Positions 52,734 to 58,053 of a DNA stretch of 64,000 bases are shown piece after piece. This stretch comes from Escherichia coli (lineage in GTDB: Bacteria > Pseudomonadota > Gammaproteobacteria > Enterobacterales > Enterobacteriaceae). The stretch's first letter is position 1. The number at the start of each line of letters is the position of its first letter. The stretch lies in assembly GCF_009931435.1 (NCBI RefSeq), contig NZ_CP043414.1. The stretch is one strand, 5' to 3'. Under the pieces are notes generated by a model that had not been told where the DNA came from, searched no databases, and saw nothing but the letters and a program-made list of their open reading frames with translations. A program made the position numbers and the translations under genes.

Positions 52734-53804
52734 ATGGCTAACGCCTGGCTCAGATTATGGCATGACATGCCAAATGACCCTAAGTGGCGAACAATTGCCA
52801 GGGTGTCAGGGCAGCCAATTGCAACAGTGATGGCAGTGTATATCCACCTCCTGGTGAGCGCGTCACGAAATGTCACGCGAGGTCACATTGATGTCACGAC
52901 AGAAGATTTGGCAAGTGCGCTCGACGTGACAGAAGAGGTAATTGATTCAATTTTGCAGACGATGCAGGGGCGGGTACTTGATGGTGATTTAATCACTGGA
53001 TGGGAAAAACGCCAGGTGCTTAAAGAGGACAACGGCAATATTTCGCAAACCGCAAAATCTCCTGCAGAGCGCAAGAGGGCGCAGCGAGAGAGGGAAAGAA
53101 AGCGGGAACAAAATGGCGATTGTCACGGCGCATCACGAAATGTCACGCACATGTCACGACGAGTCACGACAGATAAAGATACAGATAAAGATACAGATCA
53201 AGAAGATCAAAACACTATGGTCCATGGCGTAAAAAACGCTACGAACCAGGCAGGGGATGTTCAGACCGTCAATCCTGGTCAGCCAGCAGGCACGACACCG
53301 GAAGCCGATTCAGCGTATGCGCTGAAACCCGATTCGGGCGCTGTGCAGCAGGTGATGACCCAAAGGCCGGAACAATCACACCAACTGCAGCAGCCTGAAG
53401 CCGATTCCGCCATTCAGCGGGAAGCCGATCGGGTAGTCCCGGAAAACACCGGGCTGTCTGTGGGACGAGTGGATTATCCGGATGTGTTCGAACAGGTCTG
53501 GCGGGAGTACCCGTTGCGTGCCGGAGCAAACCCGAAGAAATCCGCTTTCAGTGCCTGGAAGGCCAGATTACGCGAGGGGGTGCCACCAGAGGCCATGCTG
53601 GATGGCGTGAGGCGTTACGCAAGATACTTGGCGGCTACCGGGAAAACGGGAACGGAATTTGTTCAGCGAGCGACGACGTTTTTTGGACCGGACCGGAATT
53701 TTGAGAACCCCTGGTTGCTCCCGGTAAGCGGCACGAACAACCAGCGTTGTGTGAATCATATTTCTGAACCGGATAACGAAATTCCGCCGGGCTTCAGGGG
53801 GTAA
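52734..53804 (+). CDS. replication-module protein (YdaU-like, putative initiator)
   Basis: ORF 52728..53804, ATG at 52734 after AGAGGTGAG; N-terminal WLRLWHDMPNDPKW; contains iteron clusters and an acidic DKDTDKDTD linker. Confidence 0.6.
   Translation: MANAWLRLWHDMPNDPKWRTIARVSGQPIATVMAVYIHLLVSASRNVTRGHIDVTTEDLASALDVTEEVIDSILQTMQGRVLDGDLITGWEKRQVLKEDNGNISQTAKSPAERKRAQRERERKREQNGDCHGASRNVTHMSRRVTTDKDTDKDTDQEDQNTMVHGVKNATNQAGDVQTVNPGQPAGTTPEADSAYALKPDSGAVQQVMTQRPEQSHQLQQPEADSAIQREADRVVPENTGLSVGRVDYPDVFEQVWREYPLRAGANPKKSAFSAWKARLREGVPPEAMLDGVRRYARYLAATGKTGTEFVQRATTFFGPDRNFENPWLLPVSGTNNQRCVNHISEPDNEIPPGFRG
52861..53169 (+). repeat. iteron-like repeats (putative prophage origin) inside the replication gene
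   Basis: GTCACG-type motifs at about 52862, 52872, 52882, 52893 (inverted at 52925) and 53122, 53132, 53142, 53153, 53163; TCACGAAATGTCACGC occurs twice. Confidence 0.55.
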
Positions 53805-53844
53805 GTGTTAATTTCTGGTCATGAGGTAATTTTCAGGAGGGCTT

Positions 53845-54270
53845 GTGGCAAAAGTTTTTACACAAGAAGAGCGGGAAAAAATTAAAGGGCAGGTTGTTGA
53901 ACTCGTACGCCAGAGTGGGCGCGAGACGTTACGACAACTGGAAACTAAAACTGGGGCAACAAGATATCTGATGAGCGTTCTGGCCAGAGAGCTGGTTGCC
54001 AGTGGCGATGTATACAACTCTGGTTACGGGTTATTCCCGTCTGAACAGGAGCGTAAGGACTGGCAAAATGCCCGTAAAAAGCTCTCAAGGGCAAAGCTGA
54101 AGAAACCATCTGCGGTTGATCCGGACCTTATCTGGTCATTACCTGACGGAGAAATACGTCGCTACGATAGTTGTCTAAACATAATCTGTCGCGAGTGCCG
54201 GAAGAGCGAAGTTATGCAGCGCATTATGGCATTTTATCAGGGAAATGTTAGGTATTTTAGACGTTACTAG
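53845..54270 (+). CDS. hypothetical basic protein (141 aa), replication-module associated
   Basis: GTG start 7 nt after CAGGAGG; GC similar to prophage backbone; no family recognised. Confidence 0.55.
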   Translation: MAKVFTQEEREKIKGQVVELVRQSGRETLRQLETKTGATRYLMSVLARELVASGDVYNSGYGLFPSEQERKDWQNARKKLSRAKLKKPSAVDPDLIWSLPDGEIRRYDSCLNIICRECRKSEVMQRIMAFYQGNVRYFRRY

Positions 54271-54497
54271 ATTAAAGGGCATTAGTTCAGATATGCATTG
54301 ACATTTTCATGGCACAAGGTAGAGCTAGCGTGGTTGTTCGCTTTGTGCCAAGAGTGGTCATTGATAATATTTTGGTGGGTTACATCTGTCAATGTTTCAG
54401 GTGATATGATATACAAATAGCCAGACTTAGACTGGCATGCTGTTTATTTTTATATTATGGGTGTGCCACATGGATTTAAAACTTATTGAGATATGAC

Positions 54498-55523
54498 ATG
54501 GATACTTTTCATAATATTTTGCTTGAGCACATAGACAGCCTTTTAAAAGAGAGACTTGATTTATCTGGTGACGCTGATATCGAAAAAGAAATTAATAACC
54601 TAATTCCCAAAATAGTCATTGTCGTTAAAAAATCTCTTATTGGCTCGGCCAATGCAATGCTTAGAGAACATCGTTCTCTTTGTGATGAATTTGTTGAGAG
54701 AAATATTTCAAGATGGGCAGAGGCTTTTGATTTGCTCGAAACACTTATAGTGATATGCACGGAGTCCGGTGAAGAGTTCAATCGTTCTTATAGACCACAA
54801 GCTGCCTCTGAAGAGGATGTGGTTTTTGATTTAGTCGTTCGGCATCACGCAAGAGCTTGCCACATCGCCAACGAAATTTTGTGTCTCTTAAAGAATGGAT
54901 TTGCAGATGCTGCCCAAGCGAGATGGCGAGCACTTCATGAGGTAGCAGCCACAGCTATGTTTATAGCAAAGCATGGAAAAGAGTGTGCTGAGCGCTTTTA
55001 CTACCATGAAGTGGTTGATTCATATACTGGAATGTTGGAACACAAAAAGTACGAGCACCGGTTAGAAGCAAAAGGTCCAACTATTGAAGAAATAGCTGAG
55101 TGCAAAGTTCAATTTGATCTATTAATAAAAAAATACGGCAAAAAATATGCAGATAATTATGGGTGGGCATCTTATATTTTCCCTAACCATAATAAAGTGG
55201 GGTTTGGAGCTATTGAGAAAGATGTTCAGTTAGAACACATGCGCCCTTATTATAAGTGGGCGAGTCAGAATGTACACACCGGTTCCAAGGCAATGAGAAA
55301 TAGGCTTGGTCTCTGTGAAACTGGTGATGATATATTATTGGTCGGGCAAAGTGATTCAGGAATGGCTGATCCAGCCCATGCTACTGCTATTAGTTTGATG
55401 CAGATTACTGTGACACTTTTATTCTTAAAACCAACCATTGATCATGCCGTCATTTCAAAAATAATACAGGATTATTCTGATGAGATTGGAAATGTATTTC
55501 TTAAAATTGATAAGGGTAATTAA
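54498..55523 (+). CDS. orphan AT-rich hypothetical protein (341 aa from ATG; 345 aa from TTG at 54486), function unknown
   Basis: Uninterrupted 1-kb ORF; visibly AT-rich versus flanks (about 38-40% GC by eye); no TM segments, no P-loop; no recognised homologue. Confidence 0.7.
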   Translation: MDTFHNILLEHIDSLLKERLDLSGDADIEKEINNLIPKIVIVVKKSLIGSANAMLREHRSLCDEFVERNISRWAEAFDLLETLIVICTESGEEFNRSYRPQAASEEDVVFDLVVRHHARACHIANEILCLLKNGFADAAQARWRALHEVAATAMFIAKHGKECAERFYYHEVVDSYTGMLEHKKYEHRLEAKGPTIEEIAECKVQFDLLIKKYGKKYADNYGWASYIFPNHNKVGFGAIEKDVQLEHMRPYYKWASQNVHTGSKAMRNRLGLCETGDDILLVGQSDSGMADPAHATAISLMQITVTLLFLKPTIDHAVISKIIQDYSDEIGNVFLKIDKGN

Positions 55524-55905
55524 AAATTGGAAAAGTGATAGTATATTCTTGTTTTTTTACTGGTAATTAAATGTTTTTAAAGTTACTAGTTCACACCTAT
55601 CGAACGTCCGGTCTTCGCCCAAAGCGGACTAGAAGGTTAGCTTGCGTCGGATTTGGCGTATTTAAAGAATCGCTGGTGGTTACTGGTTGTTGTGTTCCAT
55701 TTCTACAGAACAAAATCACAGAAACTATACCCAATAGTTGTATCTCATCAATGATGAGAGAGCCTCATATTTATCAGGACTGGTGTACGTCCAATACAGG
55801 AGGTTGTCGTGCTGGTTCTCAAATGTGCGCTGGCTATTGCAGCTGTAATGGCAATTTATTGTCTTGCTGTTGTTCTTATGGATCGCCTTTCTGATTGATT
55901 TTATA

Positions 55906-56109
55906 TTGGCCAGGTGACGGGAGTTAAGTAGAATGGCTGCGGGTGCTTGAGGCTATCTGTCTCAGGCATGAACACCAAAGGCAGATAGAGAAAAGCCCCA
56001 GTTAACATTACGCGTCCTGCAAGACGCTTAACATTAATCTGAGGCTCAATCTATGAACGGCAAATCTAGGTTAGCCTCTTACGTGCCGAAAGGCAAGGAG
56101 AAGCAGGCT
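55906..56109 (+). promoter_or_regulatory. hok promoter and 5' leader
   Basis: TTGGCC-17 bp-TAGAAT; leader GCGGGTGCTTGAGG (55939-55952) complementary to 3' CCTCAATGCACCCGC (56315-56329), consistent with hok fold-back pairing. Confidence 0.5.
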
Positions 56110-56265
56110 ATGAAGCAGCAAAAGGCGATGTTAATCGCCCTGATCGTCATCTGTTTAACCGTCATAGTGACGGCACTGGTAACGAGGAAAGACCTCTGCG
56201 AGGTACGAATCCGAACCGGCCAGACGGAGGTCGCTGTCTTCACAGTCTACGAACCTGAGGAGTAA
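56110..56265 (+). CDS. hokD: Hok/Gef-family type I toxin
   Basis: 51-aa MKQQKAMLIALIVICLTVIVTALVTRKDLCEVRIRTGQTEVAVFTVYEPEE, near-identical to K-12 HokD/RelF as recalled. Confidence 0.9.
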   Translation: MKQQKAMLIALIVICLTVIVTALVTRKDLCEVRIRTGQTEVAVFTVYEPEE

Positions 56266-56333
56266 GAGACTTGGCGAGGGAGAAATCCCTCGCCACCTCT
56301 GATGTGTCAGGCATCCTCAATGCACCCGCACTT

Positions 56334-56358
56334 AACCCGCTTCGGCGGGTTTATTTTA
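56334..56358 (+). terminator. intrinsic terminator of hok mRNA
   Basis: AACCCGC-TTCG-GCGGGTT hairpin followed by TATTTTAT. Confidence 0.7.
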
Positions 56359-56723
56359 TCTGTAAATATTTTTATAAAAATAATGCCCACACACAGCATA
56401 AAACAAAAAGTATCACAGATAAAAAAGGAGCGTAATGTGCAGATTTGTTGTTTTCCATATTTACTCACTTTAACATAATCAATATTGATATGGTTGTTGT
56501 TTCGGTGGTTTCAAACGAGATGTTATGGTGATCTGGTAAAATTGCATAACATTAAAATTTAATTTATCTAATCGCTTTTAATAATAAGCGTTGTGTTTAT
56601 CCCAATAATCTGTTGTTTGACTTTTATTCCATTAATGTAGGGGCTTTACACTGGAACCAGTTTATTTATACTTTATACGCCAGCCTGAACAACTGGCACC
56701 TGCTGCGCCAGCAGAGACAACCG

Positions 56724-57002
56724 ATGGCGCACGATACCAAATTACACAATTCTGATGATTCTGCCGTCTTTGCCAGCAGGTGCGGACGGCGTTTTCATGC
56801 ATTCAAATCGGACTGGTTCCAGCATCCACCATGCACTGAAGAGCAGGCTGAATGGATAATTCAGTGTTACCGCAGGCGCGGATACGAGGTTAAAAAAGCC
56901 CTTAGCCTCGACTACCGTCACTGGATAATCTCAGTCAGATTGCCTTACTCCGAACGCCCACCGCGTCCGTCCCACACATTCCAGCAACGCATCTGGAGGT
57001 AA
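56724..57002 (+). CDS. rem: Rem-like prophage protein (start uncertain; ORF opens at 56613)
   Basis: ORF upstream of ydfU in the K-12 Qin rem position; start chosen at first ATG. Confidence 0.45.
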   Translation: MAHDTKLHNSDDSAVFASRCGRRFHAFKSDWFQHPPCTEEQAEWIIQCYRRRGYEVKKALSLDYRHWIISVRLPYSERPPRPSHTFQQRIWR

Positions 57003-57003
57003 C

Positions 57004-58053
57004 GTGCGGGTATTACTTCGACCTGTTCTGGTACCGGAACTCGGGCTGGTGATCGTTAAGCCGGGCCGTGAATCCATGCCGGTATTCCACAATACCCGGT
57101 TACTGGTGGAGCCGGAACCGAAAAGCATGCGTAATCTGCCGTCCGGGGTCGTTCCTGCCGTTGGCCAGCCGCTGGCGGAAGACAAAACATTGCTGCCGTT
57201 TTTTAGTAACGAACGGGTGATTCGTGCTGCTGGCGGCGTTGGCTCATTGTCTGACTGGCTATTACGTCATGTTACATCCTGCCAGTGGCCTAATGGCGAT
57301 TACCATCACACTGAAACAGTCATTCACCGTTATGGTACCGGCGCAATGGTGTTGTGTTGGCACTGCGACAACCAACTGCGTGACCAGACATCGGAATCAC
57401 TGGAGCTGCTTGCTCAACAAAATCTGACAGCATGGGTGATTGACGTCATCCGTCACGCAATAAGCGGTACGCAGGAGCGGGAATTATCTTTGGCTGAATT
57501 ATCCTGGTGGGCGGTCTGCAATCAGGTGGTGGATGCACTACCTGAGGCTGTATCGCGTCGTTCGCTGGGATTACCAGCGGAAAAAATCTGCTCGGTGTAC
57601 CGCGAAAGCGACATCGTACCGGGAGAGCAGACCGCCACCAGCATATTGAAACAACGCACAAAAAATCTTGCACCGTTGCCTTACGCCCACCAGCAACAAA
57701 AACTACCACAGGAAAAGACGGTGGTAAGCATCACCGTTGATCCAGAGTCTCCGGAATCTTTCATGAAGCTGCCTAAACGTCGCCGCTGGGTTAAGGAGAA
57801 ATACACACGTTGGGTTAAGACACAGCCGTGTGCTTGCTGCGGTATGCCAGCCGACGATCCGCATCATCTGATTGGTCACGGGCAGGGCGGAATGGGAACA
57901 AAAGCACATGATCTCTTTGTGTTGCCTTTGTGCAGAAAGCATCACAACGAGCTGCATACGGATACAGTGGCATTTGAAGAGAAGTATGGCTCCCAACTGG
58001 AGCTGATATTTCGTTTTATCGATCGCGCGCTGGCAATTGGCGTACTGGCGTAA
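57004..58053 (+). CDS. ydfU: YdfU-like protein (DUF968) with C-terminal HNH-like Cys/His motif
   Basis: 349-aa ORF, GTG start; CACCG...DDPHHLIGHG...CRKHHNELH. Confidence 0.8.
   Translation: MRVLLRPVLVPELGLVIVKPGRESMPVFHNTRLLVEPEPKSMRNLPSGVVPAVGQPLAEDKTLLPFFSNERVIRAAGGVGSLSDWLLRHVTSCQWPNGDYHHTETVIHRYGTGAMVLCWHCDNQLRDQTSESLELLAQQNLTAWVIDVIRHAISGTQERELSLAELSWWAVCNQVVDALPEAVSRRSLGLPAEKICSVYRESDIVPGEQTATSILKQRTKNLAPLPYAHQQQKLPQEKTVVSITVDPESPESFMKLPKRRRWVKEKYTRWVKTQPCACCGMPADDPHHLIGHGQGGMGTKAHDLFVLPLCRKHHNELHTDTVAFEEKYGSQLELIFRFIDRALAIGVLA

Follow-up and report, generated by a model that had tools for sequence, protein, structure and literature searches.

What is encoded in the DNA between a DUF5677-domain gene and the toxin-antitoxin locus hok/sok of an Escherichia coli prophage? 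The question concerns a stretch of 64,000 nucleotides (nt) of contig NZ_CP043414.1, referred to here as the window, whose source is an E. coli lambdoid (Qin-like) prophage. The interval under study (55524-55905, 382 bp) extends from the stop of the DUF5677 gene (55523) to the hok promoter, with its -35 at 55906, and these limits agree with those of a preliminary description of the sequence. In that description, the interval was proposed to be remnant DNA, a 3' untranslated region (UTR) or a gene, so far unrecognised, for a small RNA or a peptide, and a Cys-rich frame of 107 codons was considered its only long frame. An open reading frame (ORF) of 29 codons, located in another frame and preceded by a consensus Shine-Dalgarno (SD) sequence, had been missed. 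This ORF is in all likelihood a real protein-coding gene for a small membrane peptide, with promoter signals of its own and separable from hok. The elements of this putative gene are:

55743-55748, + strand: -35 position, TCTCAT in the window and TTGAAT or TTGAAG in most alleles
55766-55771, + strand: -10 hexamer CATATT, with a transcription start predicted near 55778
55798-55803, + strand: SD sequence AGGAGG, 5 nt before the GTG, as read from the sequence
55809-55898, + strand: 29-codon ORF (GTG...TGA) for MLVLKCALAIAAVMAIYCLAVVLMDRLSD, with one hydrophobic helix and an acidic C-terminus

The 29-codon ORF is counted as coding because its frame is intact, its substitutions follow a three-base periodicity and its ratio of nonsynonymous to synonymous change (dN/dS) is low. 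It is intact, with no indels or length change, in 88 out of 89 distinct homologues, unlike every other ORF in the interval, each of which is broken in most homologues. Substitutions at the three codon positions of these 89 distinct sequences amount to 87/23/238, and the variable sites to 12/3/18 overall. In the 15 N-terminal codons, which lie outside the pattern used to search for homologues, the variable sites number 9/1/13 (P=0.001 for so few at position 2). The mean dN/dS over 26 alleles is 0.22, and rises to 2.0 when this DNA is read in the overlapping Cys-rich frame. The deepest comparison is the one with the Shigella plasmid pCP301, whose copy of the element has a DNA identity of ~78%; the dN of the ORF is 0.12 and its dS 0.52. 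The start codon is changed there from GTG to ATG, and the six other residue changes are all conservative. Between the window and this type of virulence plasmid (pINV), most differences affect third and first codon positions. Variability within the locus is lowest in the ORF, while its flanks contain many indels in the same sequences.

Two natural knock-outs were observed. In E. coli DETEC-E601 (locus L134, ~2920-2960), an IS3 element lies between the SD and the GTG. In E. coli HYM1 (locus L135, ~1480-1530), a deletion of ~110 bp extends over promoter, SD and codons 1-10; hok is still present downstream.

The signals ahead of the ORF were compared in 39 distinct upstream variants. Five unrelated upstream classes, together with pINV, converge ~66 nt ahead of the start codon. 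Across all classes, TTGAAT/G and CATATT are retained, separated by a spacer that is constant at 17 bp and varies in sequence. CATATT is found in 37 of the variants, in 34 of them 43 nt before the start codon, and a TTGA-type -35 lies 17 bp upstream of it in 32 of these 37 (TTGAAT 22, TTGAAG 8, TTGAGT 1, TTGATT 1). Around the SD, the sequence ACAGGAGGT is identical in 25/39 variants, and most of the others keep a purine-rich SD-like core (GGGAGG, AGGAGA or AGGGGG). As motifs, these conserved hexamers around a free spacer look like a working sigma-70 promoter, from which a leader of ~30 nt is predicted.

The allele of the window deviates from this arrangement. Three substitutions have turned the -35 from TTGAAT into TCTCAT, a form shared by only 3 of the 39 variants, which creates a perfect palindrome, CTCATCAATGATGAG, at 55744-55758. 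The promoter of the window copy may be weak as a result, and given this mutated -35 its expression may rely more on read-through from the DUF5677 gene. No terminator-like sites were detected from the DUF5677 gene to the ORF, nor from the ORF stop (55898) to the hok terminator (56334); the only other site of the scan on the + strand is a weak hairpin within the ORF itself (55833-55852). Since no terminators intervene, both read-through into the small gene and continuation of its transcript into hok are likely.

A promoter-like site was also seen on the minus strand, from 55927 to 55898 (TTAACT, 18 nt, TAAAAT). It overlaps the hok promoter in a back-to-back orientation and would start an RNA antisense to the 3' end of the small ORF. 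Its -10 reads TGAAAT or TGTAAT in most other alleles and its -35 is located in DNA that differs between classes. This site may be allele-specific or a chance match.

The interval as a whole falls into three parts: a tail that belongs with the DUF5677 cargo, a non-coding flank and, at the right end, the compact small gene. The first two parts, and the long frame that runs through all three, are:

55524-55604: AT-rich tail of the DUF5677 cargo, 24% G+C
55605-55742: upstream non-coding block, common to most ('class i') copies and forming the right flank of a hypervariable cargo site
55571-55894, + strand: 107-codon Cys-rich frame, open and judged non-coding, mostly the small gene and G/T-rich DNA as read out of frame

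The 107-codon frame exists as it was first described, and it indeed has no SD, its ATG being preceded by TTTACTGGTAATTAAATG / TTTACTGGTAATTAA. Its Cys residues, given as 16, are 12. The flagging of this frame was justified because its length is uncommon for the composition: 107 codons are reached by 5/1000 dinucleotide-preserving shuffles. A length beyond chance would favour a real protein, to which we nevertheless attach practically no credence. The start and length of the frame are retained in 3/89 distinct homologues, its open length ranges from 30 to 118 codons among the variants with no conserved start, and its longest ATG-initiated version has 23 codons in 45 of 79 variants. The ATG itself falls in DNA specific to the DUF5677 cargo, and indels of 1, 2 and 14 nt occur within the frame. 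Its third codon positions vary least, its dN/dS is the value of 2.0 given above for the DNA shared with the small ORF, and the 107-residue product matched no family in searches of Pfam, NCBIfam, PHROGs or PADLOC. On these comparisons, the Cys-rich frame is an out-of-frame artefact and no gene, and its Cys richness is that of a U-rich hydrophobic gene and G/T-rich DNA read out of frame.

The cargo tail (55524-55604) is covered in only 88 of the 1708 matching E. coli genomes, with an identity to the homologues of 0.12-0.35, and no terminator-like site was found in it by the scan. In the other genomes, the match starts at query position ~80-97, corresponding to window ~55603-55620. Conservation thus begins at ~55605, and to the left of this point the DNA differs from locus to locus. 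The adjoining block (55605-55742) is wholly replaced in the other locus classes and in pINV. It contains indels of 1, 2 and 14 nt, and coding is therefore ruled out. Its mean Jukes-Cantor distance of 0.092 is close to the dS of the small ORF (0.133). RNAalifold, applied to the 215-nt upstream block, gave a covariation term of -0.28 with 2 compensatory pairs out of 31, leaving the structure unsupported. When the two strands were folded as single sequences, the z-scores were -0.74 and +0.22. For the hairpins at 55606-55645, a function as nut-like sites or as a terminator was considered and rejected, as the complementarity of their arms is inconsistent from allele to allele and a U-tract is missing. 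The block looks like linked, near-neutral non-coding DNA hitchhiking beside the cargo site.

Among the possibilities listed in the preliminary description, a peptide gene is thus supported, with the 29-codon ORF in the place of the Cys-rich frame, and so is non-coding DNA for 55524-55742. Concerning a small RNA, a scan with Rfam 15 of 53500-57500 at E<=10 returned hok/sok, from 55941 onward, and chance matches, none of them within 55524-55905.

Directly to the left of the conserved block lies the hypervariable cargo site (window ~54271-55604, with equivalents in loci L002-L006, L022 and L134-L138). It comprises 43 sequence clusters among 113 loci. The cargoes include the DUF5677 gene of the window, AbiH, AIPR, a reverse transcriptase of the retron Ec67 family, AAA ATPases, DUF262 with an AAA protein, and an acetyltransferase with a regulator. 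This site resembles a hotspot of anti-phage defence in lambdoid prophages of the Qin type. PADLOC has no model for DUF5677; a DUF5677-domain gene is among the candidates chosen for antiphage-defence testing in a recent preprint (10.1101/2025.10.07.681051).

The order of the genes around the interval is: replication protein, DUF977 gene, DUF5677 gene, interval, hok/sok, ydfU (DUF968) and Q antiterminator. The sequence of the interval is 100% identical to positions 2399217-2399598 of the avian pathogenic E. coli O78 genome (NC_020163) and to other strains. Its neighbours are:

54486-55523: DUF5677 gene, 345 residues, stop at 55523 (Pfam DUF5677, E=5.9e-34)
55906-55934, + strand: hok promoter-like site from the promoter scan, TTGGCC (55906-55911), 17 nt, TAGAAT (55929-55934)
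55941-56115, + strand: sok/hok leader (Rfam RF01794, 110 bits)
56110-56265, + strand: hok coding sequence, from the ORF list
56334-56351, + strand: hok terminator, from the terminator scan
55941-56351, + strand: complete hok/sok locus, defined by RF01794, the hok ORF, the terminator and inverted repeats of the tac/fbi type

The hok side has a canonical layout. The inverted repeats inside hok/sok resemble, in our reading, the fold-back of the 5' and 3' ends (tac/fbi) and the ucb/dcb pairings known for hok mRNA.

The small ORF and hok are close neighbours. The ORF stop is 8 nt away from the -35 of hok, and the hok start follows the ORF stop after 211-213 nt in 96 of 114 loci, 212 nt being typical. 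The remaining 18/114 loci have no hok; in those examined, its place is taken by an unrelated gene on the reverse strand and a bidirectional terminator. Conversely, this hok locus is carried by 110 phage records, and the small peptide by just 4. In most hok-bearing phage records, including the Shiga toxin (Stx) phages, homology to the window starts only at 55921-55929, within the hok promoter, and no analogous small ORF was found upstream of hok in VT2-Sakai and Rac-SA53. The small peptide gave no BLASTP alignment with the Hok of the window, and no match to PF01848 or any other Pfam family at E<=10.

A recombination junction was located in the hok promoter (window 55912-55929). Loci of the Stx/Rac type are homologous to the window from 55921-55929 onward, and the class without hok diverges from ~55912. 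The junction falls within the hok promoter, and thus the small gene and hok are exchanged as separate modules. As far as these loci indicate, the small gene is a separable module, often but not necessarily linked to hok.

Whether the region is conserved at all had been left to be checked. By megablast, the element is present in 1708 out of 5426 complete E. coli genomes, about a third of them, at 1930 places in all, and no RefSeq-annotated feature lies under the match among the matches listed. LF82, E24377A and S. flexneri M90T are, like the avian pathogenic O78 strain, among the carriers. A tblastn search with the peptide yielded 4 phage records, Tritos, Evi, mEp460_ev081 and HannyBb, in which the small gene is unannotated on that strand. 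A scan of 100,044 species-representative genomes with a degenerate, back-translated pattern matched only E. albertii and two suspicious contigs of metagenome-assembled genomes. From these searches, the small gene appears to be confined to mobile elements of Escherichia and Shigella. The two metagenomic contigs (L130 and L131, binned as Haemophilus and 'Candidatus Scatousia') carry a small gene of the E. coli type, and the record 'Actinobacillus phage vB_Apl-pPE4' (PP818812.1) has a hok locus ~96% identical to that of the window. These three records are probably due to binning contamination or mislabelling.

The exact peptide has been deposited in scattered submissions, only as 'hypothetical protein', 'Uncharacterised protein' or 'membrane protein' (GCZ25347.1; UniRef A0A0M1UIT1). 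A literature search for the peptide sequence and its accessions found neither of them, and a keyword search of a survey of Hok diversity (bioRxiv 10.1101/2025.08.07.668861) and of the hokW-sokW paper (PMC8621323) returned no upstream ORF in the parts of these texts covered by the keywords. The small gene is a new, uncharacterised example of the overlooked small hydrophobic proteins of prophages.

The region upstream of icsP on the Shigella virulence plasmid has been much studied. A ~78%-identical copy of the element is located directly upstream of icsP on the pINV plasmids of Shigella and enteroinvasive E. coli. In pCP301 (locus L007, NC_004851.1; 2534-2760), the small ORF occupies record positions 219920-220009. 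It is intact, begins with ATG and has retained both its promoter and its SD. Downstream come the hok promoter (TTGGCG...TAGAAT) and ~65 nt of the hok leader, where the homology ends, and icsP starts 291 nt after the stop of the small ORF. Record positions 219854-220045 include the promoter of the small gene and that of hok. By this alignment, a fossil hok/sok locus is present in the regulatory region of icsP on pINV.

The peptide is strongly hydrophobic, with a grand average of hydropathy (GRAVY) of 1.81, and of 2.7 in its 19-residue core. Residues 2-24 make up its one hydrophobic helix; Lys5 lies close to the N-terminus, and the C-terminus is an acidic tail, DRLSD. The positive-inside rule suggests an N-in, C-out orientation. 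We propose a compact gene of ~160 bp (55743-55898), in which a sigma-70 promoter of the form TTGAAT-17 bp-CATATT would drive a leader of ~30 nt, AGGAGG, a GTG start and 29 codons. Phage 'morons' are accessory genes with their own expression signals. In a lysogen, the peptide would be made from its own promoter, like a moron, or partly by read-through in the window allele, and its transcript would probably run on as a 5'-extended hok mRNA, possibly ~580 nt long, to the terminator at 56334-56351. The peptide would insert into the inner membrane in the N-in/C-out orientation and act there. As a working guess, it might modulate a membrane function of the host or of a phage, for instance through exclusion or envelope effects, and be non-toxic at native levels; a product tolerated at such levels is suggested by the open leader with its consensus SD. 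A benign small membrane protein belonging to the accessory repertoire of the prophage is therefore our best guess.

Several points weigh against a real gene of this kind. The pattern scan of IMG/VR, which provided 120 further loci, used a pattern inside the small ORF, so that the sample favours intact copies. As a check on this bias, homologues found by BLAST or by the degenerate pattern were considered instead: the ORF is intact in 7/7 phage and plasmid homologues found by BLAST, in 3/5 E. coli matches taken from the lower part of the ranking, the two broken ones being the knock-outs described above, and in 3/3 matches of the scan of species-representative genomes. The -35 of the window matches the consensus at 1/6 positions and CATATT matches the -10 consensus at only 4/6. 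The peptide belongs to no Pfam, NCBIfam or PADLOC family, its only PHROG match is insignificant (E=0.74), and its topology, role and expression are read from sequence, with no homologue of known function. Finally, the divergence is shallow (dS 0.13 in the main class) and all homologues come from mobile elements of Escherichia and Shigella.

This shallow divergence would also suit the idea that no gene exists in the interval and that all of it is remnant DNA in decay or a 3' UTR, the small ORF surviving only through the recent divergence of its copies. The idea does hold for 55524-55742, which is cargo-specific or evolves at about the synonymous rate, with indels. For the ORF we consider it barely probable: it has no indels or stops while the flanks in the same sequences have many, nonsynonymous changes are ~five times rarer than synonymous ones, and the promoter hexamers persist across replaced flanks. 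The conserved DNA could also act in cis, as part of hok/sok or of the early operon of the phage (for instance as a terminator, a regulator site or an upstream promoter element), and the ORF would then be incidental. The position of the ORF end 8 nt ahead of the hok -35, the fixed distance to hok in 96/114 loci and the low variability of the stretch all fit such an element. Its probability is low all the same, as a three-base periodicity and a dN/dS of 0.22 are unexpected for a DNA or RNA element, and neither a supported structure nor an Rfam family was found. Moreover, promoter, SD and ORF are all kept in the 18/114 loci without hok, and most hok-bearing phage records, including those of Stx phages, lack the small gene.

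A more serious alternative, which we nonetheless hold to be unlikely, leaves the gene in place and changes its role: the peptide would be the toxin of a second type I toxin-antitoxin system beside hok/sok, held in check by an unrecognised antisense or divergent small RNA. Its 29 residues place it in the same size class as TisB, ZorO and DinQ, and its extreme hydrophobicity and its location on prophages and a large plasmid, beside another type I system, point in the same direction. An antisense RNA to the 3' end of the ORF would be supplied by the minus-strand site at 55927 to 55898, and RNAalifold, run on leader and ORF, pairs the SD with CCUUUCUG at the 3' end of the ORF. This pairing is without compensatory changes, however, and the antisense -10 loses its key A at position 2 in most alleles, with the -35 in class-variable DNA. 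No direct or inverted repeat complementary in trans to the region of translation start was found. The leader is short, the predicted mRNA folds no better than its shuffles (minimum free energy z = +0.21), and a consensus SD on an open leader would be unexpected for a toxin gene without protection. In addition, the peptide has no sequence relation to Hok. A bolder variant would make the peptide a partner of Hok, or a second membrane toxin, produced from the 5'-extended hok transcript. The two peptides would then form an RNA-controlled killing or exclusion module bordering the prophage defence hotspot. About a third of complete E. coli genomes would carry this module, and the pINV fossil would contribute promoters upstream of icsP. 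This variant is speculative and, in our estimation, improbable.

With the benign membrane protein as the preferred reading, the locus matters in several respects. hok/sok is among the best-studied toxin-antitoxin loci. RefSeq nevertheless lacks a conserved, probable gene that ends 8 nt ahead of the hok promoter, in 1708/5426 complete E. coli genomes as well as in the four carrier phages. If the peptide is made, a widespread small membrane protein of prophages would be added to the inventory of E. coli and Shigella, and 'hok/sok' deletions or clones derived from these prophages may unknowingly carry or lose a second gene. In the same case, the upstream region of icsP on the virulence plasmid would hold an intact small gene together with a fossil hok promoter. 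The locus also illustrates that a long ORF which catches the eye may only be the shadow that a short real gene casts in another frame.

In comparison with known systems, hok/sok itself (PF01848; RF01794) is likewise found on prophages and large plasmids and likewise codes for a small, hydrophobic peptide of the membrane. Both are physically linked, and beyond the small ORF the same strand has no terminator-like site ahead of the hok terminator. In contrast, the small peptide has 29 residues against the 51 of Hok, lacks the periplasmic domain of Hok and shows no sequence similarity to it. An overlapping frame like mok and a long folded leader are lacking in its gene, as is a demonstrated antisense RNA, and each of the two genes occurs without the other. 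The pairs TisB/IstR-1, ZorO/OrzO, ShoB/OhsC and DinQ/AgrB resemble it in peptide length (26-29 residues), in the single hydrophobic helix and in their location in accessory DNA (see also PMC3919570). The mRNAs of these type I toxins have long structured 5' UTRs, and their partner small RNAs a complementarity of 18-20 nt, unlike the small gene with its leader of ~30 nt, a folding equal to that of shuffles and no complementary repeat found. The peptide has no sequence similarity to the TisB, ZorO, ShoB and DinQ families either.

Under the preferred reading, the small gene is also comparable to phage morons and to the genes of small bacterial membrane proteins, such as MgtS, AcrZ and MgrB, by which larger membrane proteins are modulated. 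Unlike morons, the small gene has no terminator of its own, and its moron status is suggested by promoter motifs only; unlike MgtS, AcrZ and MgrB, its product has no known partner protein and no homology to characterised small proteins. As with these small proteins, the gene has been missed by standard annotation. Like morons, it is present in some related phages and absent from others (4 records, compared to 110 with the hok locus). With both groups it would share its general design, an autonomous promoter and a tiny single-helix ORF, placed here in the early region of a prophage.

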